A DNA stretch of 64,000 nt from Eledone cirrhosa. Its lineage: Eukaryota. The stretch covers positions 23,250,001-23,314,000 of the forward strand of contig OZ024765.1 of the NCBI GenBank assembly GCA_964016885.1, written 5' to 3'. Numbering within the stretch: the first letter of the stretch is position 1; every line of letters starts with the position of its first letter. The notes beneath the pieces are model-generated. The model searched no databases. It saw nothing but the letters and a program-made list of their open reading frames with translations, and was not told the origin of the DNA. The position numbers and the translations under genes are program-made. This document shows, one piece after another, positions 20,896 through 51,521 of this stretch.

Positions 20896-21048
20896 GTAAT
20901 GAGTCCAGATATGGTCTTCTAATGCCACATATACCACCACACACACCACACACATAAACATATAAACACATACATACACACATACACATAAATACACACG
21001 CATATAAATACATACATTTATATATATGTATATATATATGTATGTATA

Positions 21049-21362
21049 GCCTTGCAATCGAAAGGTTGTGAGTTCAATTCTCAGACCGGGTGATGTGTTG
21101 TTTCCTTGAGCAACACACTTTATTTCACATTGCTCCAGTTTACTCAGCTGTAGAAATGAGATGATAGGGACTGCGGTCCCTATCATTCCACTGAAAAGTG
21201 GTCGTGCAGGTGACACGGCAAAAAAGCACCCAGCACTCACTGTAAATGAGGTTGGTGTTAGGAAGGGCATCCAGCTGTAGAAATCAAGCCAGAATCAGTT
21301 CCCGTCCCACCCTTGCAGGCAGGGAAAAAGCGGACGTAAAATGAAATGATGATGATGATGAT
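21049..21362 (+). mobile_element. SINE family B: tRNA B-box, CORE-like body, RTE-derived middle and (GAT)n tail
   Basis: GAGTTCAATTC; TCCTTGAGCAACACACTT; GTTAGGAAGGGCATCCAGC; tail matches RTE 3' end at 35865-35920. Confidence 0.75.
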
Positions 21363-21467
21363 GTATATATATATATATACCCACAGACATGCATGGGTTT
21401 ATATGTATGTGTGTGTATATATATACAACACATGCTAGCGTGGAAGATGGACGTTAAACGAAGATGA

Positions 21468-21502
<35 letters not shown>

Positions 21503-21644
21503 CACACATACATGGCTTTATATGTATGTGTATATATATATGTTTTGACTTGTGTGTTAAGCAAGCTTTACATCTTGATACGCATTAGACGCAAGTTGGG
21601 TCAGGTGACCGCGTCTCGCTCATACAGAACTGTTTCAGGCTTGC

Positions 21645-24405
21645 TTTCTATGGCTGGATACCCTTCCTAACACCAACCACAGTTACAGTGTTGACTGGGG
21701 GCTTTTTGTCGTGACACCTACATGACCACTTTACAGAGTGGACTGGGTGCTTTTTGTCGTGACACCTACATGACCACTTTACAGAGTGGACTGGGTGCTT
21801 TTTGTCGTGACACCTACATGACCACTTTACAGTGTGGACTGGGTGCTTTTTGTCGTGACACCTACATGACCAGTTTACAGAGTGGACTGGGTGCTTTTTG
21901 TCGTGACACCTACATGACCACTTTACAGAGTGGACTGGGTGCTTTTTGTCGTGACACCTACATGACCACTTTACAGAGTGGACTGGGTGCTTTTTGTCGT
22001 GACACCTACATGACCACTTTACAGAGTGGACTGGGTGCTTTTTGTCGTGACACCTACATGACCACTTTACAGAGTGGACTGGATGCTTTTTGTCGTGACA
22101 CCTACATGACCACTTTACAGAGTGGACTGGGTGCTTTTTGTCGTGACACCTACATGACCACTTTACAGAGTGGACTGGGTGCTTTTTGTCGTGACACCTA
22201 CATGACCACTTTACAGAGTGGACTGGGTGCTTTTTGTTGTGACAGCTACATGACCACTTTACAGAGTGGACTGGGTGCTTTTTGTCGTGACACCTACATG
22301 ACCACTTTACAGAGTGGACTGGGTGCTTTTTGTCGTGACACCTACATGACCACTTTACAGAGTGGACTGGGTGCTTTTTGTCGTGACACCTACATGACCA
22401 CTTTACAGAGTGGACTGGGGGCTTTTTGTCGTGACACCTACATGACCACTTTACAGAGTGGACTGGGTGTTTTTTGTCGTGACACCTACATGACCACTTT
22501 ACAGAGTGGACTGGGGGCTTTTTGTCATGACACCTACAGGACCACTTTACAGAGTGGACTGAGTGCTTTTTGTTGTGACACCTACATGACCACTTTACAG
22601 AGTGGACTGGGTGCTTTTTGTTGTGACAGCTACATGACCACTTTACAGAGTGGACTGGGTGCTTTTTGTCGTGACACCTACATGACCACTTTACAGAGTG
22701 GACTGGGTGCTTTTTGTCGTGACACCTACATGACCACTTTACAGAGTGGACTGGGTGCTTTTTGTCGTGACACCTACATGACCACTTTACAGAGTGGACT
22801 GGGGGCTTTTTGTCGTGACACCTACATGACCACTTTACAGAGTGGACTGGGTGCTTTTTGTCGTGACACCTACATGACCACTTTACAGAGTGGACTGGGG
22901 GCTTTTTGTCGTGACACCTACAGGACCACTTTACAGAGTGGACTGAGTGCTTTTTGTCGTGACACCTACATGACCACTTTACAGAGTGGACTAGGTGCTT
23001 TTTGTCGTGACACCTACATGACCACTTTACAGTGTTGGCTGGGTGCTTTTTGTCGTGACACCTACATGACCACTTTACAGAGTGGACTGGGTGCTTTTTG
23101 TCATGACACCTACATGACCACTTTACAGTGTTGGCTGGGTGCTTTTTGTCGTGACACCTACATGACCACTTTACAGTGTTGGCTGGGTGCTTTTTGTCGT
23201 GACACCTACATGACCACTTTACAGAGTGGACTGGGTGCTTTTTGTCGTGACACCTACATGACCACCTTACAGAGTGGACTGGGTGCTTTTTGTCGTGACA
23301 CCTACATGACCACTTTACAGTGTTGGCTGGGTGCTTTTTGTCCTGACACCTACATGACCACTTTACAGAGTGGACTGGGTGCTTTTTGTCATGACACCTA
23401 CATGACCACTTTACAGTGTTGGCTGGGTGCTTTTTGTCGTGACACCTACATGACCACTTTACAGAGTGGACTGGGTGCTTTTTGTCGTGACACCTACATG
23501 ACCACTTTACAGAGTGGACTGGGTGCTTTTTGTCATGACACCTACATGACCACTTTACAGTGTTGGCTGGGTGCTTTTTGTCGTGACACCTACATGACCA
23601 CTTTACAGAGTGGACTGGGTGCTTTTTGTCGTGACACCTACATGACCACTTTACAGTGTTGGCTGTGTGCTTTTTGTCGTGACACCTACATGACCACTTT
23701 ACAGAGTGGACTGGGTGCTTTTTGTCGTAACACCTACATGACCACTTTACAGTGTGGTCTGGGTGGTTTTTGTCGTGACACCTACATGACCACTTTACAG
23801 TGTGGTCTGGGTGGTTTTTGTCGTGACACCTACATGACCACTTTACAGTGTGGTCTGGGTGGTTTTTGTCGTGACACCTACATGACCACTTTACAGAGTG
23901 GACTGGGTGCTTTTTGTCGTGACACCTACATGACCACTTTACAGTGTTGGCTGGGTGCTGTTTGTCGTGACACCTACATAACCACTTTACAGAGTGGACT
24001 GGGTGCTTTTTGTCGTGACACCTACATGACCACTTTACAGAGTGGACTGGGTGCTTTTTGTCGTGACACCTACATGACCACTTTACAGTGTTGGCTGGGT
24101 GCTTTTTGTCGTGACACCTACATGACCACTTTACAGAGTGGACTGGGTGCTTTTTGTCATGACACCTACATGACCACTTTACAGTGTTGGCTGGGTGCTT
24201 TTTGTCGTGACACCTACATGACCACTTTACAGAGTGGACTGGGGGCTTTTTGTCGTGACACCTACATGACCACTTTACAGAGTGGACTGGGGGCTTTTTG
24301 TCGTGACACCTACATGACCACTTTACAGAGTGGACTGGGTGCTTGTTGTCGTGACACCTACATGACCACTTTACAGAGTGGACTGGGTGCTTGTTGTCGT
24401 GGCAC
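21645..24405 (-). repeat. 48-bp minisatellite (~56 copies) amplified from the RTE/SINE-B internal domain
   Basis: Unit catgaccactttacagagtggactgggtgctttttgtcgtgacaccta, contiguous with GGATACCCTTCCTAACACCAACC. Confidence 0.93.
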
Positions 24406-24499
24406 CGACACAATGACTTTAATAGAAAGATAGTGAGAAGAGGGCTGAATGGGAAAAAAATGTCTGAGAAAAAATCGTGTGTCAGTGATATGCATATAT

Positions 24500-24780
<281 letters not shown>

Positions 24781-24866
24781 ATGAATTGACCTGTAATTTT
24801 TATCTAAAGACATTTTTTCCAATTCCATCCCACCCGTCCCCTCAATCTACCTTATTTCTCATTCTT

Positions 24867-24902
24867 TCTTCTAATGAAGGACTAGCGTCTGAAACGTTAA
24901 GA
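24867..24902 (+). ncRNA. Degenerate minimal hammerhead ribozyme relic (G5>A)
   Basis: TCTT-CTAATGA-AGGACTAGCGTCT-GAAACGTT-AAGA. Confidence 0.45.
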
Positions 24903-25279
24903 CCCTCTTCCTGCTATATCAAGTGTTAACCTAATATATCCCTTCCATATACTGTACTGATTGTGTTGTTATTTCTGTTTAACTTTTACATACACACATA
25001 TATATATATATAAACGGAAAAAATGAAACAAAATTTCATTTCCCACTCTTAGTACGGCTGTTACTTAAATATATGTATGTATACGTATATACATATATGT
25101 ATACAGACGTACAATAGTATGTATATATATATATATACATGCACATATATATATATATGTACGTATGGATTCAGCGAACATTTATTATAATGCTCGGTGT
25201 GTTTGTAAACAAACATCCCGTATGAAGCCGTAGTGTCCAGAAACCATCGTTGCTCGTTTGTTCAACACTGACAAAGGAA

Positions 25280-25320
25280 CGCTGTACTAGTTTCAAGCTT
25301 ATTAGCTATCGTCAGCAACT
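25280..25320 (-). ncRNA. Minimal type I hammerhead ribozyme
   Basis: Reverse complement: GTTG-CTGACGA-tAGCTaataAGCTt-GAAA-CTA-GTA-CAGC. Confidence 0.85.
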
Positions 25321-25767
25321 TATACCTTCCTGCCAGATGGTTGAACATCTGAAAGTATATACTTTCCTTATGCATATTAACGGCTGAGCAGCCTAATTTG
25401 CATATTGAGTGAGTTAATCGGCCCCGGGGTACCGAAAATCATAAACGCAAAAAATGAAACAAAATTTCATTTCTCACTCTTTGTACGGCTGTTACTTAAA
25501 TATAAGTATGTATACGTATATACATATATGTATACAAACGTACAGTAGTATGTATATATATATATATATATATATATACATGCACACATATATATATATG
25601 TACGTATGGATTCACCAAACATTTATTATAATGCTCGGTGTGTTTGTAAACAAACATCCCGCATGAAGCCGTACAGTGTCTAGCAACCATCGTTGCTCAT
25701 TTGTTCAACACTGACAAAGGAACGCTGTACTAGTTTCAAGCTTATTAGCTATCGTCAGGAAGGTATA

Positions 25768-25808
25768 CGTTGCTGACGATCGCTAATAAGCTTGAAACTA
25801 GTACAGCG
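25768..25808 (+). ncRNA. Minimal type I hammerhead ribozyme
   Basis: CGTTG-CTGACGA-tcGCTaataAGCtt-GAAA-CTA-GTA-CAGCG. Confidence 0.85.
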
Positions 25809-25952
25809 TTCCTTTGTCAGTGTTGAACAAACGAGCAACGATGGTTGCTAGACACTACGGCTTACTTCGGGATGTTTGTTTACAAACACACCGAGCATTA
25901 TAATAAATGTTCGGTGAATCCTTACGTACATATATATATGTGTGTGTGCATG

Positions 25953-25996
<44 letters not shown>

Positions 25997-26046
25997 CTAC
26001 TGTACATCTGTATACATATATGTATGTACGTATACATACTTATATT

Positions 26047-26082
<36 letters not shown>

Positions 26083-26084
26083 TA

Positions 26085-26245
26085 TCTTCCATGCTAGTAT
26101 GGGTAGGATGGGTTGACCTTCAGAGAAAGAATGAGGTCAGAGGACCATGTTTAGCTCACCCAGGGCAGATTTTGGCTTGGTTTCTACAACTGGATGCTCT
26201 TCCTAACGCCAACCACATTTACAATCTGGACTGGGCACTTTTGTC
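26085..26245 (-). mobile_element. RTE-related SINE fragment
   Basis: CTTCCATGCTAG tail and GGATGCTCTTCCTAACGCCAACC domain. Confidence 0.65.
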
Positions 26246-26324
26246 TTGGAATTATGATGCTTGGGAAAATTGCAAATGTAGGTAATAATATTTATATATA
26301 TATGAATTGATTGAAAATATATAT

Positions 26325-27500
26325 ATAGAAGTGGTAACACAACAGTTAGTTCACCATATCGAGAACAATTGTTTCACCTTAGCGGATCTGTAGCTCATAA
26401 TGGACATGGTTATACGGAACAGCTCATAATGGACATGGTGAACGCACATACACAGGAACAGTCACTTCAGCCAGGCAATACAAAACTGTGTGTGAGAGGT
26501 GTAAGGGAGATAACTGTGAAAGTTTCTAGTTAAGAAAATTAGGATGTTGTTGTTGTTCAATCCGGAGCTTTGTAGTTATGTAAAAGGTGTTTCCAGACAT
26601 GTGGACAACGCGTGAAGAATTAATTTCTTAAGTTTAGGCAATCACTATTGCGTAATCTCTTTAGAATATTTATATGTTCATCAATACATAGTCCACACGA
26701 CGGATTGCCCCTTGCATATGGCTTGGACTTAGTGATGGCTTTCCATTGAATGGACCATATGTGGCTCGTGAGTTTCGTGGATGATCGGTTGTCCAGGTAC
26801 CTAAAGGTCGACTGGTGGTTCAGGAAGCGCTCCTTAAATCAGCCCTCCGCCATACCTACATAAAGATTTGACCTCCTGTGGTTGATTTGGTCGGTTGGAA
26901 GTGACCACAGTTTCATAAACTACAGCGGGTGTGTTGCATTGCTGTTGAAGGGGACAAGCTTCAGGCTTTCAGCAAGAGCACCTTTGTGGCTTGTTGCTCT
27001 TGCCGAAAGCCTGAAGTTCCATCCAATGGAAAGCCATCACTAAGTCCAAGCCATACGCAAGGGACAATCCGTAGTGTGTGGACTATGTATTGATGAATGG
27101 ATAAATATTCTAAAGAGATTATGCAATAATGATTGCCTAAACTCAAGAAATGAATTCTTCACACGTCCACATGTCTGGAAACACCTCTTACATAACTACA
27201 AAGCTCCGGATTGAATTACAACAACATCCTAATTTTCTTATCAACTAGAAACTTTTGGACTTTCGCAGTTATCTCCCTTAAACCTCTTGCACGCAGTTTT
27301 GTATTGCCTGAATGAAGTGACTGTTCCTGCACATGCGCGTTCATACGATTTTCCTTCCTGTTCTGTATAACCATGTCCATTACGAGCTGAAGATCAGCTA
27401 AGGTGAAACAATTGTTCTCGATATGGTGAACTAACTGTTGTGTAACCACTTCTACCCAACTCGTCCCTTGAACTGAGTGCTCTACTACTACGGATATTAC
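26325..27500. mobile_element. Two degraded Penelope-like 3' fragments (GIY-YIG) arranged head to head
   Basis: Minus strand reads CPLQQQCNTPAVVYE...YVG...FKERFLNHQSTF...HIW..WKAITKSKPY; 27015-27455 is an inverted homolog of 26325-26755. Confidence 0.75.
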
Positions 27501-27681
27501 CTACCACTATATATATATCACAGAAAATAGAGAATCAGGGTTGCGACGAAAGGAATTTATTGGACATATTACAATAAATATATATATATGTTCCGAAGAG
27601 ATTGTTTTGGTAAAAACAGGAGCAAGCAGGAGAAAGCACTCAACATTCGTAGTTTGTATTTACGATGGAGATTCAGTATAA

Positions 27682-28005
27682 TAATTGTCCCTACTTTAGG
27701 CACAAGGCCAGCAATTACCCAGTGCATTACTGGTACTTTATTTTATCGACCCCGTAAGAATGAAAGGCAAAGTTAACCTCGGCGGGATTAGAACTCAGAA
27801 TGGCAAGGGCCGTAACTCTATGCGTCAAAGCATGGTGTCCGACCCTCTACCGATACTGCCAATCCACCGCCCTTCCTTCAGTATATTAATTGTTTCTACG
27901 TTAGGCACAAGGCCAGCAATTACCCAGTGCATTACTGGTACTTTTAATAACTGTTTCTACTTTAGGCACAAGGCCAGCAATTACCCAGTGCATTACTGGT
28001 ACTTT
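27682..28005 (-). mobile_element. SINE family A with two extra tail duplications
   Basis: Reverse complement of the SINE-A consensus; tails repeated at 27888-27945 and 27950-28005. Confidence 0.85.
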
Positions 28006-28054
28006 TAATAACATTAATAAAGATGCTTTGTTGTTGTTGTTATAATAACAACAA

Positions 28055-28245
28055 GGCGGTGGATTGGCAGTATCGGTAGAGGGTCGGACGCCATGCTTTG
28101 ACGCATAGAGTTACGGCCCTTGCCATTCTAAGTTCTAATCTCGCCGAGGTTAACTTTGCCTTTCATCCTTTACGGGGTCGATAAAATAAAGTACCAGTAA
28201 TGCACTGGGTAATTTGCTGGCCTTGTGCCTAAAGTAGAAACAGTT
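28055..28245 (+). mobile_element. SINE family A, full length
   Basis: GGCGGTGGATTGGCAGTATCGG ... GTGCCTAAAGTAGAAAC. Confidence 0.88.
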
Positions 28246-28381
28246 ATAATAACAACAAATGCATGAATTACATCTTGATTCCATGAGAGAACCGTTGAAA
28301 TAATTATAATGAATAAACGATTTTTGTAACATCAGCATCTTTATTAATGTTGTTGTTTTATATATTTGTTGTTTACTGTAG

Positions 28382-28492
28382 GGCTGGTTGTCTTCTTTAT
28401 CCACCGTCAGAAGATGACATAACATGTGAAGGGGATGTGGGTTCCTATCTGCAGGCAAAGATGTTGTCACTGCACACTGTACCACCTCCAAA
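28382..28492 (+). CDS. PINK1-like kinase exon D (111 nt, C-terminal extension)
   Basis: Acceptor gtttactgtAG, donor AA|GTAAGT, phase 2/2; continues frame AGCLLYPPSEDD...HTVPPP. Confidence 0.8.
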
Positions 28493-28534
28493 GTAAGTCT
28501 CTCTCTCTCTCTCTCTCTCACTGTACCACCTCCA

Positions 28535-28572
<38 letters not shown>

Positions 28573-28622
28573 ACCACCTCCAAAGTAAGTCTCTCTCTCT
28601 CTCTCTCACTGTACCACCTCCA

Positions 28623-28668
<46 letters not shown>

Positions 28669-29855
28669 ACCACCTCCAAAGTAAGTCTCTCTCTCTCTCT
28701 CTCTCACTGTACCACCTCCAAAGTAAGTCTCTCTCTCTCTCTCTTACTGTACCACCTCCAAAGTAAGTCTCTCTCACTGTACCACCTCCAAAGTAAGTCT
28801 CTCTCTCTCACTGTACCACCTCCAAAGTAAGTCTCTCTCTCTCTCTCCCTCACTGTACCACCTCCAAAGTAAGTCTCTCTCTCTCTCACTCACTGTACCA
28901 CCTCCAAAGTAAGTCTCTCTCTCTCTCCCTCTCTCACTGTACCACCTCCAAAGTAAGTCTCTCTCTCTCTCTCACTGTATCACCTCCAAAGTAAGTCTCT
29001 CTCTCTCTCTCTCACTGTACCACCTCCAAAGTAAGTCTCTCTCTCTCTCTCTCTCTCACTGTACCACCTCCAAAGTAAGTCTCTCTCTCTCTCTCTCTCT
29101 CACTGTACCACCTCCAAAGTAAGTCTCTCTCTCTCTCTCTCTCACTGTACCACCTCCAAAGTAAGTCTCTCTCTCTCTCTCACTGTACCACCTCCAAAGT
29201 AAGTCTCTCTCTCTCCCTCTCTCTCTCTCTCTCACTGTACCACCTCCAAAGTAAGTCTCTCTCTCTCTCTCTCTCACTGTACCACCTCCAAAGTAAGTCT
29301 CTCTCTCTCTCTCACTGTACCACCTCCAAAGTAAGTCTCTCTCTCTCTCTCACTGTACCACCTCCAAAGTAAGTCTCTCTCTCTCTCTCCTCTCACTGTA
29401 CCACCTCCAAAGTAAGTCTCTCTCTCTCTCTCACTGTACCACCTCCAAAGTAAGTCTCTCTCTCTCTCCTCTCACTGTACCACCTCCAAAGTAAGTCTCT
29501 CTCTCTCTCTCCCTCTCACTGTACCACCTCCAAAGTAAGTCTCTCTCTCTCTCTCACTGTACCACCTCCAAAGTAAGTCTCTCTCTCTCTCCCTCTCACT
29601 GTACCACCTCCAAAGTAAGTCTCTCTCTCTCTCTCTCTCTCACTGTACCACCTCCAAAGTAAGTCTCTCTCTCTCTCTCACTGTACCACCTCCAAAGTAA
29701 GTCTCTCTCTCTCCTCTCACTGTACCACCTCCAAAGTAAGTCTCTCTCTCTCCTCTCACTGTACCACCTCCAAAGTAAGTCTCTCTCTCTCTCCTCTCAC
29801 TGTACCACCTCCAAAGTAAGTCTCTCTCTCTCTCCCTCTCACTGTACCACCTCCA

Positions 29856-29893
<38 letters not shown>

Positions 29894-29980
29894 ACCACCT
29901 CCAAAGTAAGTCTCTCTCTCTCTCTCACTGTACCACCTCCAAAGTAAGTCTCTCTCTCCTCTCTCACTGTACCACCTCCA

Positions 29981-30011
<31 letters not shown>

Positions 30012-30026
30012 ACTGTACCACCTCCA

Positions 30027-30064
<38 letters not shown>

Positions 30065-30116
30065 ACCACCTCCAAAGTAAGTCTCTCTCTCTCTCCCTCT
30101 CACTGTACCACCTCCA

Positions 30117-30162
<46 letters not shown>

Positions 30163-30392
30163 ACCACCTCCAAAGTAAGTCTCTCTCTCTCTCTCTCACT
30201 GTACCACCTCCAAAGTAAGTCTCTCTCTCTCTCAATGTACCACCTCCAAAGTAAGTCTCTCTCACTGTACCACCTCCAAAGTAAGTCTCTCTCTCTCTCT
30301 CTCTCACTGTACCACCTCCAAAGTAAGTCTCTCTCTCTCTCTCTCTCAATGTACCACCTCCAAAGTAAGTCTCTCTCACTGTACCACCTCCA

Positions 30393-30423
<31 letters not shown>

Positions 30424-30474
30424 ACTGTACCACCTCCAAAGTAAGTCTCTCTCTCTCTCACTGTACCACCTCCA

Positions 30475-30505
<31 letters not shown>

Positions 30506-30556
30506 ACTGTACCACCTCCAAAGTAAATCTCTCTCTCTCTCACTGTACCACCTCCA

Positions 30557-30587
<31 letters not shown>

Positions 30588-30710
30588 ACTGTACCACCTC
30601 CAAAGTAAGTCTCTCTCTCTCTCACTGTACCACCTCCAAAGTAAGTCTCTCTCTCTCTCACTGTACCACCTCCAAAGTAAGTCTCTCTCTCTCTCACTGT
30701 ACCACCTCCA

Positions 30711-30741
<31 letters not shown>

Positions 30742-30756
30742 ACTGTACCACCTCCA

Positions 30757-30794
<38 letters not shown>

Positions 30795-30804
30795 ACCACC
30801 TCCA

Positions 30805-30835
<31 letters not shown>

Positions 30836-30922
30836 ACTGTACCACCTCCAAAGTAAGTCTCTCTCTCTCTCACTGTACCACCTCCAAAGTAAGTCTCTCT
30901 CTCTCTCACTGTACCACCTCCA

Positions 30923-30953
<31 letters not shown>

Positions 30954-31690
30954 ACTGTACCACCTCCAAAGTAAGTCTCTCTCTCTCTCACTGTACCACC
31001 TCCAAAGTAAGTCTCTCTCTCTCCCTCTCACTGTACCACCTCCAAAGTAAGTCTCTCTCTCTCTCACTGTACCACCTCCAAAGTAAGTCTCTCTCTCTCT
31101 CACTGTACCACCTCCAAAGTAAGTCTCTCTCCCTCTCACTGTACCACCTCCAAAGTAAGTCTCTCTCTCTCTCCCTCTCCCTCTCTCACTGTACCACCTC
31201 CAAAGTAAGTCCTCTCTCTCTCTCTCTCTCACTGTACCACCTCCAAAGTAAGTCTCTCTCTCTCTCAATGTACCACCTCCAAAGTAAGTCTCTCTCTCTC
31301 TCTCACTGTACCACCTCCAAAGTAAGTCTCTCTCTCTCTCCCTCTCTCACTGTACCACCTCCAAAGTAAGTCTCTCTCTCTCCCTCTCTCTCTCTCTGTA
31401 CCACCTCCAATGTAAGTCTCTCTCTCTCTCACTGTACCACCTCCAAAGTAAGTCTCTCTCTCTCTCTCTCTCCCTCTCTCTCCCTCTCTCTGTCTCTCAC
31501 TGTACCACCTCCAAAGTAAGTCTCTCTCTCTCTCCCTCTCTCTCTCTCTCTCACTGTACCACCTCCAAAGTAAGTCTCTCTCTCTCTCCCTCTCTCTCCC
31601 TCTCTCTGTCTCTCACTGTACCACCTCCAAAGTAAGTCTCTCTCTCTCTCCCTCTCTCTCTCTCACTGTACCACCTCCAAAGTCTCTCTC
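28474..31690 (+). repeat. Tandem array (~80 units) of CACTGTACCACCTCCAAA|GTAAGT(CT)n
   Basis: First unit is the real exon D end plus donor. Confidence 0.95.
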
Positions 31691-31804
31691 TCTGCCCCCC
31701 CCCCCCCTCTCCCATCTTCCCCTCCCTCTCTCTCTCTACTCTACAATAATTACCCCTCCCCCCTTGCCAATATTATTTATGTTGTGTCACTTCTTCCCTT
31801 TCAG

Positions 31805-41859: not shown

Positions 41860-42680
41860 ACAAATTCAGGATGCAGTTGCAGGAAGCCGGATGAATGCCC
41901 ATTGCAGGGCAAATGTAACACCAAATCTGTTGTTTATGAGGCTAAAATAACACCGTTAATCAACAACCAGCCAGAAGTGAGCGATATGTCAGCATGACCC
42001 AGGACAGGTTTAAAACCAGGTTTTACTCACATGTCACTTCTTTTAAGCACTCCGAAAAACGAACAACAACGGCCCTCACAAGTAAGGTGTGGGATTTCAA
42101 GGATAATAACATCCCGTACTCTATTGGTCTATTTTAGACCATTCGAGGGAGTACCAAAGGGGCACAAAGAATTGTTCTTCGTGTACCACAGAAAAATATA
42201 GGATTTTGCTAAACTTGAAAGCCACTTCTGCTTGCCTGAGATCTTTAGATCTTGTCCTCATCTGAAATCACATCTGATCTGTAACTGGATTGACATTCCT
42301 ATGATAACTCAACCGTCTTGAACTCCTTTCCTGCTCTTTACTTCTACTACGGTTTTTTTACCTGCTGAATCCACGTTCTGTACTCTTGTATTCTCTTTCT
42401 CCTTTATCTCCCCTTATATTTAACCTTTTCCTATGTCATTCCCCCCCCCCCCTATGTTTTCCCTTACCCTTCACATACCATAATGTATGTGTATATATAT
42501 ATGTGTGTGTATATGTATATATATGGATAGACCATGATTTTTTCATTCTGATTGAAGGAAAAATTTTTTGCTTTTAAGAAACCATTGGTAAATGGAATAA
42601 TTGCCTTATGTTGTTTATTACATAACTATATGTATATATATATAGCCTCAGAAAAGGCTTGAGCTCTGCCGTAGGGTCAG
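41860..42680 (+). mobile_element. Degraded Penelope-like GIY-YIG fragment plus 3' region
   Basis: CSCRKPDECPLQGKCNTKSVVYE, FKTRFYSH, KVWD; partial hammerhead 3' half at 42647-42677. Confidence 0.72.
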
Positions 42681-42704
42681 GCTTCTTCCTATGTGTGTGT
42701 GTCA

Positions 42705-42738
<34 letters not shown>

Positions 42739-43119
42739 CGTTTTTGTATGTGTGTTTGTATTTCTGTGGTTGGGGGGTTTTTTTGTGTGCGTGTGTGTAT
42801 GTATATATTTTTGTGTGTGTGTGTATATGTATAATTGTATTAGGGTGTATGTATGTGCATCATTATGTATAGGGATTTGATGAATATTTTCATTGATCTT
42901 TTGCTCCATGAACTTGTTGAGTGCTCTAGGTCTGCTATGGGCATTTATACCCTTTTCTAAATATATATATATAATGAATGGGTCTACTCCACCCCCTCAC
43001 CCTTTTTCTCCTACCGGCAGGTTTAGCTACTCCTTCCCCCACCAACTTGCCATCACAGATTTACTACTAACTTGTGATGTGACCAATCCTGGTGATTATC
43101 TCTGACCATATATGGAATT

Positions 43120-43213
43120 ACCCCTTGATAAGTTTGGCTATTTAAATACCAGAATAAATTTTCATTCAGTACAGAATTAGCCGTCGAAACGGCTTGAGCT
43201 CAGCCGTCGGGGT
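43120..43213 (+). ncRNA. Type I hammerhead ribozyme, U3-A8 variant, pLTR1
   Basis: ACCCC-TTGATAA-G..TGGCTA/TAGCCGTC-GAAA-CGGCT/AGCC-GTC-GGGGT. Confidence 0.75.
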
Positions 43214-43398
43214 CTTACTTATTCCTATTACCCACTCTACTACCCTAAGTATTGAGTACTTTGGTGCGTTATGGTCCACCTGGTTCCTTACCACATTTCC
43301 TTCGTTATCTAGCTCCTATCCCCGTAGTAGAGCACTTTCCGACCCTACCACACCGTATCCAGACTTTTCCACTAAGCTCAATTTCTTTCAACCGCACC

Positions 43399-45578
43399 AT
43401 GCGAAAACACAATATCGACTTCTCTACCAAGAACATCCCAATCCCACCGAAAAAACTTTACCTTCGGATGCTCACGCAAAAAATCGATCTATTTGCGAAA
43501 AGACTTAGATGGAGAACTTTTTTCTACGACAGATTCTGCGACAATCAGGACTTCGGTACCAAGGAGAGATTCGGATTTATTACCTACAAATATCCCCCCC
43601 TCCCCCGAACCCTTTGCTCTCACCCTTCGAGAATGACCTCTTCCAACTGGTCAAGAACCTTAAATTCAAACCCAGACACAACCGATTCCTACAAAAACTC
43701 CGTAGCAATTTAACAGAGTATGATAACACCAATGACATCATGGTGCATTCGGATAAAACTGGGAACCTATATTTTGTCAACCCCGACAGATACCACACAC
43801 TGATCAGGAGCAGCCTAAACTCCACCTATAAAAAGGCTAACCACTCATGCATCGGGGACATTAATCGAGATGGACAACAAATTACCTCCAGCCTCGGGGT
43901 CGCCGACCGCACCGAACCCCTAGACCCACGGACACCCTACTTCACACTGAAGGACCACAAATCCGATTTCGACCGTAAACCATCTATCAGGCTTATAAAC
44001 CCAACGAAGTCCGACATAGGGTGAATCAGCAAAAAAATCCTAGACCGCGTGATACCAAAAGTCAAGCAACACGCCCGACTTAGCCTATGGATCAACACCC
44101 AGGAAGTTATCTCATGGTTCAGCAATTTGGAGGATAAACGAGACACTAAATTTATCCAGTTCGACATAGAGAGCTACTATGCTTCAATCACATTACCGCT
44201 ACTTACTGCCGCCTTGGACTTCGCCGAAGCATTTGTGCCCATCACCGACCAGGAAAGAAAAATCATCCTCCACGCCAGGAAGACAGTCTTACTCTTTGAC
44301 AACTCCAAATGGATAAAAAGAGCTCCTGATTCACCCTGCGACGTCAGCATGGGCGCTACGGATTCGGCGGAGGTCACAGATCTTATAGGATTATTCCTTA
44401 TAGCCAAACTCACCGATATGTTTCCTGCTTTCGGTGGTGGATTGTACCGTGATGATGGGCTCCTTACCCTTAAAGGGTACAACCCCAGTAGTACAGACCA
44501 GGTCCGTAAACAATTAATCAGCTTCTTCCGCGACTGGGGATTTAAAATAACCCTACAAACGTCCCTGACCCGAGTTAATTTCCTGGACGTGACCCTCGAT
44601 CTCAATAATGACCTGTACTACCCATACAGGAAACCCAATGACAACCTGCACTACATCCACCGCCGATCTAACCATCCTAGGAACATCACCAACAACCTGG
44701 TCAAAAACATCTCCCTCCGTATATCCCGTTTGTCAGCTAATGAGAAGATATTCGATGAACATGCGCCTTACTACAACCAGGCCCTCAAGCGGAGTGGTTT
44801 CCGGGAGGAAATATCCTACTGTCCAGCTCCCATTAGCGGAACCAGCAGGCGACACCGCCGCTCACGCAATGTAACATGGTTCAATCCTCCCCACAACGCC
44901 GAGGTGACAACTCCCATCGGGAAAATTTTCTTTAGGCTCATTGAAAAACACTTCCCACCACAACACCGCTACCACAACATAATTAACAAAAATACCATCA
45001 AACTCTCTTACAGCACTACACCTAACTTCGCACAAAACATCGTCTCCTCCAACAACAAAAAACTCAACCCCGATGGAAGAAACAACCTAAATAGCAGTGG
45101 AGAGCCGACCAGGAGGTGCAACTGTCCTGATAGATCCAGTTTCCCCCTCGACAACAGATGCAGAGACCGTAATGTGATCTACCAGTGCAACGTGAGCACG
45201 GACACCTCCAACAAAGCTTATATAGGATTAACCGCATGCGACTTCAAGACCCAGCTATACCAACAGAGACATACCTTCCGAAACCCGGCCCGGCGTCACG
45301 CCACTACACTTTCGGGCCACATATGGGACCTCAAGGACAACAACATCAACTATGATCTCACTTGGAAATTACTGTCCAGAGCCAACTCTTACACGGGAGG
45401 ACGCCGTCCGTGCAATTTATGCTCGGAGGAAACATTACAAATGCTGTGTTCGACGGACCAACTCCTAAACAAGAAAGGTGAACTGGTTACTGCATGTAAA
45501 CACCGATTACGTAGGACTTACCTCGCCCTCAAACCCCATAATGACCCCGGGGGGGGGGGGGGTAAACTAGGGCTATAA
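43399..45578 (+). pseudogene. Penelope RT + GIY-YIG ORF copy 1 (frameshift in C-run ~43600, in-frame TGA 44022)
   Basis: DKT, QFDIESYY, SMG, YRDDGL, FLDV, WFNPP, CNC..C, NVIY..YIG, CNLC, CKH. Confidence 0.9.
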
Positions 45579-46339
45579 CACCCCACTTGCCTATTTTGTA
45601 ATGGGTAACCCCTGCTTGCCAATGGAGACGTAAGATCTTCTTTTACATTCTTTTATCGCTTCCTCTATATTTCCTCCTCCCCCCATCCCTCCCTAGTCCT
45701 TCTACCCCAGTTCCTTTTTTTTGTCGTTTTCTTTGTCGTCGTCTTTTTCTTGCCCACCCGAGGTAGCCCATCGGTCCCTTGTAGCTCCAGCACCCCCACC
45801 CCCTCCCCTATTCTATGATAGATTTGGCTGACTCCGCTTTTTATAGCAGAGGTGTTAGACTTCGGATACTCGCCCCCTTCTCCGACCGCTGTCCCTTTTT
45901 TCCGTGCCTTCTATATTTCTTAGTGGCATCTTTGCTTTAATTTCTCGTTTATCCAGTATTTCTTTCTCCTTTTTCCCCTTTTTTGGGGGGGAGGGGGGAT
46001 GTTCCTGTATTAATTTTCCGTTCTTTATTTTTACTTCGTACGATCTTTCATGTAGCTTGTATAAGACTTTCTGTTTCGTGGCGGAACCCTTAGAGTTAGC
46101 ACTAGTATTTTTTTGCGGGACCCTGAATTATATTCTCGTACTAGTTTACTTTCTTGCACCGGGTGGTTGCTGGCCCTGTGATTGGGGTAGAAACCTTTAT
46201 TATTTCGTGGTAGTCTCTTTAGTACTCTGCCCCCACCTTTGTTGACCCGTCACCGTACGATACACGCACTTATGCCTCGTATAAGGGTCCCTTTATTTCC
46301 ATCCCACCTAGTTTATTTCTATTATTATTATTTATTTTT

Positions 46340-46403
46340 ATATAAATAAAGTACCAGTAATGTACTGGGTAATTGCTGGCCTTGTGCCTAAAGTAGAAAC
46401 AAT
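46340..46403 (+). mobile_element. Short SINE-A tail insertion with TSD, present only in Penelope unit 1
   Basis: Absent at the equivalent site ~50010-50030; flanked by duplicated ttattattatttattttt. Confidence 0.8.
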
Positions 46404-46841
46404 TATTATTATTTATTTTTTTATTCTACATTATATATATATATATTTTTTTTTAAAATTTATTTATCTATTCTTTTATTCACTTATTTGTTTATTTATT
46501 TATTTATGTATTTCTTTAGCCTAGCAATAGCGAGAGACTTAAGTTCTAGTAACCAGACTTTGCTTATTTATTTTTTTTCTCTCTCAGTTCCTTTTAGTTT
46601 TACCCTCATTGTTCTACTTACCGTTTCGACCTCCTCCCCCTCCCCAGTATCCTCTTTGACCTCACACCCAGCTGTAGCTGGCACTACCAACGCATGAATA
46701 GGTCTACTCCACCCCCTCTCCCTTTTTCTCCTACCGGCAGATTTAGCTACCCCTTCCCCCACCAACTTGCCATCACAGATTTACTACTAACTTGTGATGT
46801 GACCAATCCTGGTGATTATCTCTTTGACCTTATATGGAATT

Positions 46842-46935
46842 ACCCCTTGATAAGTTTGGCTATTTAAATACCAGAGTAAATTTTCATTCAGTACAGAATT
46901 AGCCGTCGAAACGGCTTGAGCTCAGCCGTCGGGGT
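46842..46935 (+). ncRNA. Type I hammerhead ribozyme, U3-A8 variant, pLTR2
   Basis: Same motif as pLTR1. Confidence 0.75.
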
Positions 46936-47120
46936 CTTACTTGTTCCTATTACCCACTCTACTACCCTAAGTATTGAGTACTTTGGTGCGTTATGGTCCA
47001 CCTGGTTCCTTACCACATTTCCTTCGTTATCTAGCTCCTATCCCCGTAGTAGAGCACTTTCCGACCCTACCACGCCGTATCCAGACTTTTCCGCTAAGCT
47101 CAATTTCTTTCACCCGCACC

Positions 47121-49281
47121 ATGCGAAAACACAATATCAACTTCTCTACCAAGAACATCCCAATCCCACCGAAAAAACTTTACCTTCGGATGCTCACGCA
47201 ACAAATTGATCTATTTGCGAAAAGACTTAGATGGAGAACTTTTTTCTACGACAGATTCTGCGACAATCAGGACTTCGGTATCAAGGAGAGATTCGGATTT
47301 ATTACCTACAAATTTCCCCCCCCCGAACCCTTTGCTCTAAACCTTCGAGAATGACCTCTTCCAACTGGTCAAGAACCTTAAATTCAAACCCAGACACAAC
47401 CGATTCCTACAAAAACTCCGTAGCAACTTAACAGAGTATGATAACACCAATGACATCATGGTGCATTCGGATAAAACTGGGAACCTATATTTTGTCAACC
47501 CCGACAGATACCTCACACTGATCAGGAGCAGCCTAAACTCCACCTATAAAAAGGCTAACCACTCATGCATCGAGGACATTAATCGAGATGGACAACAAAT
47601 TACCTCCAGCCTCGGGGTCGCCGACCGCACCGAACCCCTAGACCCACGAACACCCTACTTCACACTGAAGGACCACAAATCCGATTTCGACCGTAAACCA
47701 TCTATCAGGCTTATAAACCCAACGAAGTCCGACATAGGGTGAATCAGCAAAAAAATCCTAGACCGCGTGATACCAAAAGTCAAGCAACACACCCGACTTA
47801 GCCTATGGATCAACACCCAGGAAGTTATCTCATGGTTCAGCAATTTGGAGGATAAACGAGACACTAAATTTATCCAGTTCGACATAGAGAGCTACTATGC
47901 TTCAATCACATTACCGCTACTTACTGCCGCCTTGGACTTCGCCGAAGCATTTGTGCCCATCACCGACCAGGAAAGAAAAATCATCCTCCACGCCAGGAAG
48001 ACAGTCTTACTCTTTGACAACTCCAAATGGATAAAAAGAGCTCCTGATTCACCCTGCGACGTCAGCATGGGCGCTACGGATTCGGCGGAGGTCACAGATC
48101 TTATAGGATTATTCCTTATAGCCAAACTCACCGATATGTTTCCTGCTTTCGGTGGTGGATTGTACCGTGATGATGGGCTCCTTACCCTTAAAGGGTACAA
48201 CCCCAGTAGTACAGATCGGGTCCGTAAACAATTAATCAGCTTCTTCCGCGACTGGGGATTTAAAATACAAACGTCCCTGACCCGAGTTAATTTCCTGGAC
48301 GTTACCCTCGATCTCAATAATGACCTGTACTACCCATACAGGAAACCCAATGACAACCTGCACTACATCCACCGCCGATCTAACCATCCTAGGAACATCA
48401 CCAACAACCTGGTCAAAAACATCTCCCTCCGTATATCCCGTTTGTCAGCTAATGAGAAGATATTCGATGAACATGCGCCTTACTACAACCAGGCCCTCAA
48501 GCGGAGTGGTTTCCGGGAGGAAATATCCTACTGTCCAGCTCCCATTAGCGGAACCAGCAGGCGACACCGCCGCTCACGCAATGTAACATGGTTCAATCCT
48601 CCCCACAACGCCGAGGTGACAACTCCCATCGGGAAAATTTTCTTTAGGCTCATTGAAAAACACTTCCCACCACACCGCTACCACAACATAATTAACAAAA
48701 ATACCATCAAACTCTCTTACAGCACTACACCTAACTTCGCACAAAACATCGTCTCCTCCAACAACAAAAAACTCAACCCCGATGGAAGAAACAACCTAAA
48801 TAGCAGTGGAGAGCCGACCAGGAGGTGTAACTGTCCTGATAGATCCAGTTGCCCCCTCGACAACAGATGCAGAGACCGTAATGTGATCTACCAGTGCAAC
48901 GTGAGCACGGACACCTCCAACAAAGCTTATATAGGATTAACCGCATGCGACTTCAAGACCCGGCTATACCAACAGAGACATACCTTCCGAAACCCGGCCC
49001 GGCGTCACGCCACTACACTTTCGGGCCACATATGGGACCTCAAGGACAACAACATCAACTATGATCTCACTTGGAAATTACTGTCCAGAGCCAACTCTTA
49101 CACGGGAGGACGCCGTCCGTGCAATTTATGCTCGGAGGAAACATTACAAATGCTGTGTTCGACGGACCAACTCCTAAACAAGAAAGATGAACTGGTTACT
49201 GCATGTAAACACCGATTACGTAGGACTTACCTCGCCCTCAAACCCCAGAATGACCCCGGGGGGGAGGGGGGGGGGGGGTAA
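47121..49281 (+). pseudogene. Penelope RT + GIY-YIG ORF copy 2 (indels ~47315-47345, in-frame TGA 47740)
   Basis: Near-identical to copy 1. Confidence 0.9.
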
Positions 49282-50432
49282 ACACCCCACTTGCCTATTT
49301 TGTATTGGGTAACCCCTGCTTGCCAATGGAGACGTAAGATCTTCTTTTACATTCTTTTATCGCTTCCTCTATATTTCCTCCTCCCCCCATCCCTCCCTAG
49401 TCCTTCTACCCCAGTTCCTTTTTTTTGTCGTTTTCTTTGTCGTCGTCTTTTTCTTGCCCACCCGAGGTAGCCCATCGGTCCCTTGTAGCTCCAGCACCCC
49501 CACCCCCTCCCCTATTCTATGATAGATTTGGCTGACTCCGCTTTTTATAGCAGAGGTGTTAGACTTCGGATACTCGCCCCCTTCTCCGACCGCTGTCCCT
49601 TTTTTCCGTGCCTTCTATATTTCTTAGTGGCATCTTTGCTTTAATTTCTCGTTTATCCAGTATTTCTTTCTCCTTTTTCCCCTTTTTTGGGGGGGAGGGG
49701 GGGTGTTCCTGTATTAATTTTCCGTTCTTTATTTTTACTTCGTACGATCTTTCATGTAGCTTGTTTCGTGGCGGTAACCTTAGAGTTAGCACTAGTATTT
49801 TTTTGCGGGACCCTGAATTATATTCTCGTACTAGTTTACTTTCTTGCACCGGGTGGTTGCTGGCCCTGTGATTGGGGTAGAAACCTTTATTATTTCGTGG
49901 TAGTCTCTTTAGTACTCTGACCCCCCTTTGTTGACCCGTCACCGTACGATACACGCACTTATGCCTCGTATAAGGGTCCCTTTATTTCCGTCCCACCTAG
50001 TTTATTTCTATTATTATTATTTATTTTTTTATTCTACATTATATATATATATATATTTTTTTTAAAAATTTATTTATCTATTCTTTTATTCACTTATTTG
50101 TTTATTTATTTATTTATGTATTTCTTTAGCCTAGCAATAGCGAGAGACTTAAGTCCTAGTAACCAGACTTTGCTTATTTATTTTTTTTCTCTCTCAGTAC
50201 CTTTTAGTTTTACCCTCATTGTTCTACTTACCGTTTCGACCTCCTCCCCCTCCCCTTCACACCCAGCTGTAGCTGGCACTACCAATGCATGAATGGGTCT
50301 ACTCCACCCCCTCTCCCTTTTTCTCCTGCAGGTTTAGCTACACCTTCCCCCACCAACTTGCCATCACAGATTTACTACTAACTTGTGATGTGACCAATCC
50401 TGGTGATTATCTCTTTGACCATATATGGAATT

Positions 50433-50526
50433 ACCCCTTGATAAGTTCGGCTATTTAAATACCAGAATAAATTTTCATTCAGTACAGAATTAGCCGTCGA
50501 AACGGCTTGAGCTCAGCCGTCGGGGT
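50433..50526 (+). ncRNA. Type I hammerhead ribozyme, U3-A8 variant, pLTR3
   Basis: Same motif; stem II U-G pair is C-G here. Confidence 0.75.
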
Positions 50527-50536
50527 CTTACTTGTT

Positions 50537-50577
<41 letters not shown>

Positions 50578-50790
50578 ATATTTTAGTTAAATAAGGTTCA
50601 TATGAATTATCTAAGAATGAGTTTTACACACATATATATATGCACCGAAACGAAATTTTGTTTCAATTTTTCCGTTTATCGTTTTCGGTGCACCCGGCCG
50701 ATTAACCCACTCGATATGCAAATTGGGCTACTCAGCCGTTAATATGCATAAGGTAAGTATATACATTCAACAATCTGGTAGGAAGGTATA

Positions 50791-50831
50791 CGTTGCTGAT
50801 GATAGCTAATAAGCTTGAAACTAGTACAGCG
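50791..50831 (+). ncRNA. Minimal type I hammerhead ribozyme, canonical core
   Basis: CGTTG-CTGATGA-tAGCTaataAGCTt-GAAA-CTA-GTA-CAGCG. Confidence 0.88.
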
Positions 50832-51212
50832 TTCCTTTGTCAGTGTTGAACAAACGAGCAACGATGGTTGCTAGACACTACGGCTTAATACGGGATGTTT
50901 GTTTACAAACACACCGAGCATTATAATAAATGTTCGCTGAATCCATACGTACATATATATATGTGTGTGCATGTATGTATATATATATACATACTACTGT
51001 ACGTCTGTATACATATATGTATGTACGTGTACATAATTATATTTAAGTAACAGCCGTTCTAAGAGTGGGAAATGAAATTTAGTTTCATTTTTTCCATTTA
51101 TCGTTTTCGGTGCACCCGGCCGATTAACCCACTCAATATGCAAATTGGGCTACTCAGCCGTTAATATGCATAAGGTAAGTATATACGTTCAACAATCTGG
51201 CAGGAAGGTATA

Positions 51213-51253
51213 CGTTGCTGACCATATCTAATAAGCTTGAAACTAGTACAGCG
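51213..51253 (+). ncRNA. Minimal hammerhead, mutated core (CTGACCA)
   Basis: Same scaffold with G8>C and a stem II mismatch. Confidence 0.7.
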
Positions 51254-51521
51254 TTCCTTTGTCAGTGTTGAACAAACGAGCAACGGTGGTTGCTAGACAC
51301 TACGGCTTAATACGGGATGTTTGTTTACAAACACACCGAGCATTATAATAAATGTTCGGTGAATCCATACGTACATATATATGTGTGCGTGTATGTATAT
51401 ATATATATACATACTACTGTACGTCTGTATACAAATATGTATGTACGTGTACATACTTATATTTAAGTAACAGCCGTACTAAGAGTGGGAAATGAAATTT
51501 AGTTTCATTTTTTTCCATTTA

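Follow-up and report, generated by a model that had tools for sequence, protein, structure and literature searches.

Introduction

Metazoan non-LTR retrozymes are described, in the available text of Cervera and de la Pena (2020; PMC7229834), as tandem, non-coding, low-GC units spanning a few hundred bp, with one type I hammerhead each. The idea that a Penelope-like element (PLE) serves as their helper has already been published (PMC7229834; 10.64898/2026.07.22.740005, as far as their accessible parts go), and in the accessible part of the 2026 preprint by Li, Clavereau and Pollet (10.64898/2026.07.22.740005) the case is made for vertebrates from co-occurrence and pLTR homology. PLE insertions, in the excerpts available, contain an inverted 5'-truncated copy, carry a tail on one side, and are biased toward (TA)n (PMC8557442, PMC3846280); with a purified PLE protein, both strands are cut and extended, and the tail is defined by the two RNA sites used as starts (PMC11167929, in the portion available). 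How head-to-head Penelope insertions arise is described as unresolved in the accessible literature, and a fold-back origin of the inverted copies has been proposed (PMC3846280, in the part available). Other hammerhead repeats, those of newt satellite 2 and of Schistosoma, have an internal promoter, the newt ribozyme being of the dimer type (PMC2220036, PMC6765202, from partial texts).

Here we analyze an element in a 64,000-nt stretch of the Eledone cirrhosa genome (hereafter, the window). It shares the above traits of metazoan retrozymes and is very probably a non-coding, hammerhead-motif non-LTR retrozyme written into (TA)n by a Penelope-like enzyme from both cut sides at once. While the helper enzyme of animal retrozymes has so far been proposed from co-occurrence and homology, this family adds a countable footprint with in-genome controls: unlike in the available text of the retrozyme papers (PMC7229834; 10.64898/2026.07.22.740005), the evidence here is the head-to-head layout and the pairing of long and short ends, with no pLTR homology found to two PLEs of the window or in four flanks. 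Our literature search, with most subscription papers outside its scope, found no report of a Penelope insertion footprint in any retrozyme.

Layout of the Insertion

The element spans positions 25013–26048 of the window (Table 1); unit coordinates q1–433 correspond to window positions 25445 down to 25013. It comprises a minus run (25013–25758), equal to one full unit plus q131–433, and a plus run (25756–26048), equal to q114–380. The sequence-only reading had described minus-strand units with a 443-bp period that switch to the plus strand at 25756–25758, with CAG common to both strands. The period is exact, as measured between the two hammerheads at 25290 and 25733, and exact extension at the switch confirms the 3-nt overlap. 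The two breakpoints are just 17 nt apart.

Table 1. Features of the retrozyme insertion and of its surroundings, in window coordinates.
Feature	Position	Strand	Comment
Intron of ankyrin-repeat protein kinase gene hosting the element	20896..28381	+	homologue mapping
Retrozyme unit 1, full ~433-bp monomer	25013..25445	-	its 3' end at 25013, of the long (tailed) kind, adjoins a (TA)n tract
~56-nt tail	25013..25068	-	bounded by the short 3' end (q~377-380) and the long one (q~430-433)
Minimal type I hammerhead motif, unit 1	25279..25321	-	predicted cut after 25285; one stem I mismatch
GTATATAC, TATA-like box	25355..25362	-	+1 predicted near 25331 if placed as in U6 genes
TATGCAAATTAG, upstream motif of host U6, U6atac, MRP and tRNA-Sec genes	25393..25404	-
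Unit 2, 5'-truncated at the CTGACGA core (q131)	25444..25758	-	hammerhead without the 5' strand of stem I
Head-to-head junction, 3-nt microhomology CAG	25756..25758	.	exact extension
Inverted arm, q114-380	25756..26048	+	ends at the short (untailed) end, then (TA)n
Sense hammerhead motif	25767..25809	+	cut predicted after 25803; stem II altered by A>C at 25781
Second insertion of the retrozyme family	50646..51520	+	direct tandem, not inverted; long end followed by (TA)n

The resulting layout, head-to-head arms with 3-nt microhomology, one tailed and one untailed end, and (TA)n on both sides, resembles that of endonuclease-bearing PLE insertions, for which partial tandems, an inverted 5'-truncated head-to-head copy, a one-sided tail, (TA)n as target, and a hammerhead motif are likewise described in the accessible parts of PMC8557442, PMC3846280, and PMC11167929. 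The retrozyme differs from PLE insertions in being a stand-alone 433-bp repeat without an ORF, in having mostly non-palindromic junctions, and in its tail of ~56 nt, compared with 30–40 bp published for PLEs in the excerpts available. The tail contains a small hairpin and a T6 run (25018–25023). With regard to a target-site duplication, the sequence ATACACACATATATAT is present on each side of the element, but it is of low complexity and the flanks are (TA)n. Only repeat-derived frames, and no ORF of its own, are seen over the element, and the unit has no frame for RT and GIY-YIG, the trait of an autonomous PLE.

The hairpin proposed initially is present, although its arms are shorter than the ~290 bp then assigned to it: the paired arms (25497–25758 and 25773–26048) measure about 260–275 bp, with 249/260 aligned bases identical. 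The predicted RNA fold of the inverted stretch has an energy of -404 kcal/mol (z -34).

Inverted Copies in the Family and in Control Repeats

The retrozyme family is represented by at least 5,898 exact matches to a 31-base core pattern, the reversed control giving 0. Its copies, 94–96% identical, lie on many chromosomes as tandem, non-coding units of ~420–445 bp with one hammerhead motif each; two subfamilies differ by an 8-nt insertion at q90–97, between the TATA-like box and the hammerhead. Three samples of loci were parsed. Sample A comprises the 30 loci of best identity, including the one at 25013–26048. Sample B comprises 59 loci, that is, 70 fetched from the first 100 C1 matches minus 10 overlapping ones and one segmental duplicate, and omits two long arrays and the last three places of these 100. 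Sample C comprises 62 loci found with a less frequent pattern that lies downstream of the ribozyme, and omits overlaps with sample B, one array, a duplicated cluster (one place kept), and one duplicate.

A simple head-to-head order is found in 18/30 (A), 27/59 (B), and 36/62 (C) loci, hence in 63/121 position-sampled loci (B and C). Sample C has in addition one convergent and two complex loci, the convergent order being almost absent from the parsed loci (one). TA repeats occur on both flanks in 45 of the 63 inverted position-sampled loci. The 3' ends of the family fall at two sites, q~377–380 and q~430–433 (short and long ends, respectively). Among the 81 inverted loci of the three samples, 67 have both ends at these sites and 14 have an end elsewhere; a long end is paired with a short one in 63 of the 67 classable loci (p 6e-15), the locus at 25013–26048 being among the 63. 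The inversion is family-wide and not peculiar to this locus, which is an ordinary member of its family.

In a tRNA-like SINE, one clear and one ambiguous inversion are found in 29 loci; an RTE-type LINE shows none in 23 loci with the 5' end in view, and none in seven running off the edge. Compared with these, the retrozyme proportion of 63/121 has Fisher p values of 5e-6 (SINE, at most 2/29) and 7e-7 (RTE LINE, 0/23), in a comparison where the SINE does not reach the length of the retrozyme runs and the LINE loci were chosen by identity. As a positive control we used the Penelope-like family at 42.5–50.5 kb of the window, with 18/27 loci head-to-head; all 16 simple head-to-head loci of this control have one short and one longer end and TA-rich flanks. 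The sequence-only reading had taken the inversion for a footprint of Penelope-type integration, and both counts agree with it: inversions are commoner in the retrozyme than in the non-Penelope repeats, and the tail is one-sided in nearly all classable inverted loci. Its link to the Penelope machinery stands as regards insertion geometry, while a partner element with common sequence was not found among the PLEs compared. The retrozyme unit has no significant match to the two PLEs of the window, and none of four widened flanks contains PLE frames contiguous with the retrozyme, (TA)n lying in between. A tblastn search places PLE frames near 9 of the first 100 retrozyme loci.

The control element, at 42560–50540 (plus strand), consists of two tandem copies with RT and YIG motifs in frames broken by stops, and has three pLTR hammerheads reading UUGAUAA, a U3-A8 swap of the core. 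Judging by the YRDD and YIG motifs, the tandem layout, and the hammerhead, we take it to be Penelope-like; it has no Pfam match, and its relatives are only unnamed ones. The 33-base hammerhead pattern of this family has 20,034 matches. Most sampled copies are short fold-back stumps with an 80-nt tail, and the 5' ends of the stumps pile up 11–21 nt before GAAAC. A second Penelope-like fragment (26326–27510) lies in the kinase intron, 280 bp from the retrozyme, with the same layout: head-to-head arms (26326–26754 and 27018–27454) that are 87% alike, a minimal hammerhead close to 27387, and a tail confined to the right end. The sole clearly inverted copy of the tRNA-SINE (L134:1354–1543) is head-to-head and is located in (TA)n, unlike the other SINE copies; its RNA was possibly copied by a Penelope-like enzyme.

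Junction Positions and Similarity of the Arms

The retrozyme breakpoints are spread over the whole unit (KS test against uniform, p 0.27). The interval q127–137 was fixed from an excess in samples A and B and then tested on sample C against a simulated null. It holds 6/72 breakpoints of sample C (2.3 expected, p 0.027), 7/88 of samples A and B without the locus at 25013–26048 (2.8 expected), and 13/160 of all samples (5.1 expected, p 0.002; 2.6-fold). Hence, of the suggestion that the ribozyme core is a special site for the strand switch, a mild enrichment is retained, and 147/160 breakpoints are elsewhere; the core is a weakly supported, mild stop zone. We speculate that such a zone might arise if the enzyme meets a double hammerhead in which stem I has not yet opened. 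A sharp stop at q132–133, suggested by BLAST ends, was rejected, as exact reading gives 9/31 stops in q130–134 (p 0.10); the other exactly read stops range over q114–139, several of them being internal mutations, which indicates a broad zone with no single base. The excess of breakpoints is not significant at the cleavage site (6/160 vs. 3.1 expected) or near the predicted transcription start (7/88 vs. 3.9, p 0.09).

Subfamily alleles are common to both arms of a locus in 200/228 comparisons (124 expected), and rare variants are common to both arms in 54/696 cases compared with 1,604/268,505 between loci, a 14-fold difference that is about the same as for tandem neighbors; the comparisons behind these figures are not mutually independent, and inter-arm conversion could have raised the sharing. 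As the arms share rare variants, each insertion is one event. Neighboring tandem units are alike at 216/236 polymorphic sites, with 0/2 at the locus at 25013–26048; since some tandem neighbors differ, not every insertion can have been templated by one circular monomer.

Regarding editing traces, an A>G excess is seen when counted per unit (50 vs. 18, p 0.0009); counted once per locus in a larger set, it is 101/10,399 vs. 67/9,114 (p 0.09), and G>A is skewed, too. In inverted loci (q24–268), rare A>G variants are found on both arms in 14/62 cases, and other rare variants in 40/634. This sharing of rare A>G variants hints that edits were already on the RNA template.

Hammerhead Motif

The unit motif reads, in order, stem I, CUGACGA, stem II (short, with a basal U-U pair), GAAA, a single A-U pair closing CUAG, the cut site after GUA, and stem I. 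According to the available text of PMC7229834, axolotl retrozymes likewise have a single-pair stem III with a palindromic tetraloop and a stem II with a basal U-U mismatch. The core is intact in 85/102 near-full units. An Rfam search of the hammerhead gives nothing at the gathering score, the only match being a weak one to HH9 (E 0.23), and RNAfold z-scores of single hammerhead motifs are near 0, the catalytic fold being absent from the RNAfold and cofold output; because Rfam and single-motif folding are weak, the ribozyme call is based on the core motif and its conservation. Microrna-type Rfam matches, all below the gathering score, were discarded as TA-repeat noise.

Hammerheads had been assigned to both strands of the hairpin. 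The sense motif is indeed seen, in weakened form: stem I is formed by 25767–25772 with 25804–25809, and CTGACGA (25773–25779) is followed by GAAAC-TA-GTA. The minus-arm motif at the junction is broken by the loss of the 5' strand of stem I, and the complete minus-strand motif is in unit 1, with a mismatch in stem I.

The further proposal, that the sense hammerhead cuts the kinase pre-mRNA, is not upheld. Short-stem-III (minimal) hammerheads are reported to need a dimer (PMC7229834, PMC6765202, in the parts available), and the insertion has a single sense copy of this dimer-type motif, with A>C at 25781; moreover, the sense motif is predicted to be fully paired within the -404 kcal/mol hairpin, the antisense arm being transcribed first. 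Since the motif is weakened, single, and predicted to be locked in the hairpin, cleavage of the pre-mRNA by the predicted ribozyme is unlikely. Formation of long dsRNA from the inverted arms in the kinase pre-mRNA is plausible, given the predicted fold. Apart from this ~270-bp hairpin, the retrozyme copy at 25013–26048 is likely inert. About half of several thousand insertions of the family are long inverted repeats, and the intronic ones are therefore candidate substrates for dsRNA formation or editing.

U6-Type Promoter-Like Motifs

Seven host genes, namely three U6, U6atac, MRP, and two tRNA-Sec genes, have the motif TATG(C/G)(A/T)AAT(T/G)AG near -77 to -80, and also GTATA(T/A)A at -31 or -32. 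The pair TATGCAAATTAG and GTATATAC in the retrozyme spacer scores 28.3 on a promoter profile built from five of the seven scored host genes, compared with 27.4–31.6 for the host genes, and this score is reached by 0/1,256 background tiles. The spacing of the two motifs is 42 nt in the retrozyme vs. 46–48 nt in the seven host genes, a real mismatch of 4–6 nt. Transcription of the retrozyme RNA probably starts from a promoter of U6 type that each unit contains. The predicted start is just ahead of stem I, and the 8-nt subfamily insertion would move it from q115 to q123; promoter conservation between the subfamilies is uninformative because the whole unit is conserved. The T6 run, just before the long end, would stop Pol III there; therefore, copies containing the spacer would need read-through, which we assume, or a circle.

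The accessible text of the metazoan retrozyme papers (PMC7229834; 10.64898/2026.07.22.740005) makes no mention of such a U6-type pair of motifs within the unit. An internal promoter is also a feature of the newt and Schistosoma hammerhead repeats; that of newt satellite 2 is reported as an snRNA-type Pol II promoter in the partial texts available (PMC2220036, PMC6765202), whereas the retrozyme motifs match the upstream regions of host U6, U6atac, MRP, and tRNA-Sec genes and not the U2 regions examined.

The RNase P and U2 genes examined (L226; L212, L214, and L215) lack the upstream motif TATGCAAAT(T/G)AG and have in common a CAGTGG-containing stretch ~60 nt upstream, a hint that RNase P RNA uses a U2-type promoter in this genome. 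In some U6 genes of the C19 tandem array (L107, L110, and L112), a SINE with target duplication is located between the TATA box and the start. A promoterless U6atac copy (L116:1390–1500, minus strand) starts right after the (TA)n beyond the long end of a Penelope-like stump.

Proposed Mechanism of Insertion

Insertion of the retrozyme by a PLE enzyme is likely, as read from geometry only. In the scheme that we propose, RNA would probably be transcribed from the U6-type promoter within each unit, with some read-through of T6, and be cut by dimeric hammerheads. The protein of a Penelope-like element, borrowed by the retrozyme, would nick both target strands; reverse transcription would be primed at two fixed positions, ~56 nt from each other, in RNA of a single source (a multimer or circle); and the two cDNAs would stop at mostly random points and then be joined end to end. 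A more specific version is possible, if doubtful: a self-transcribing retrozyme with an internal U6-type promoter, inserted by a dimeric Penelope protein, the two halves of which would each have their own fixed start on one RNA and elongate opposite DNA ends. If true, the strict pairing of long and short ends would document the way in which every head-to-head Penelope insertion forms, and the surplus of stops just 3' of stem I would reflect a folded double hammerhead that blocks reverse transcriptase in vivo.

The joining of two cDNAs has to be weighed against other sources of inverted copies. L1-type twin priming by a LINE, with one RNA primed at its 3' end and again internally to give a 5' inversion, also yields head-to-head order and short microhomology, and the 1–5 nt overlaps in 18 of the 44 refined junctions and the abundance of RTE LINEs in the genome are in its favor. 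Here it is very unlikely, as the second priming site is fixed (at the long or the short end) instead of variable, no poly(A) tail is seen, the 5' breakpoint of the long arm is not clustered at the other priming site, and inversions in RTE and SINE copies are absent or rare, as counted above. Self-priming or DNA fold-back, in which the first copy folds at a palindrome and is extended into its mirror image, is quite unlikely. The rare variants common to the arms, the short distance between the breakpoints of the locus at 25013–26048, and an 8-nt palindrome at the junction of another locus (L027) agree with it, but fold-back alone would not yield one tailed and one untailed end, and in most loci the two arms break off at distant points (circular distance 0–215, within 20 nt in 4/44). 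This distance, together with the overlaps and the extra letters (the latter in 22 of the 44 junctions), favors joined cDNAs primed from opposite strands over fold-back self-priming.

That the locus would result from two independent opposite insertions into one (TA)n tract, or from an assembly artifact, is extremely unlikely. (TA)n tracts do gather nested insertions (e.g., L031), but the junction has no (TA)n, the convergent order is almost absent, and alleles are common to the arms. As for an artifact, no read or contig piece spanning 25756–25758 is found among the 24 listed of 4,237 pieces; against it, the arms differ at 11/260 bases plus indels, and family minus-to-plus joints are present in short reads (12/15 among the joints listed), as other family loci would give. 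The retrozyme footprint argues for two-ended priming over self-priming, and it specifies two priming sites on an RNA of 433 nt, a size suited to in vitro assays.

Host Gene

The placement of the element in a kinase intron is confirmed by Octopus ankyrin-kinase homologues, whose plus-strand exons, as mapped, end near 20896 and resume near 28380; the intron boundaries are GT at 20896 and AG at 28380–28381, and the homologues of the host exon are octopod ankyrin-repeat kinases. Downstream, a 36-bp satellite (28475–31700) has a unit in which the 3' end of kinase exon 28382–28493 is present together with its splice donor, and the satellite thus contains dozens of decoy donor sites.
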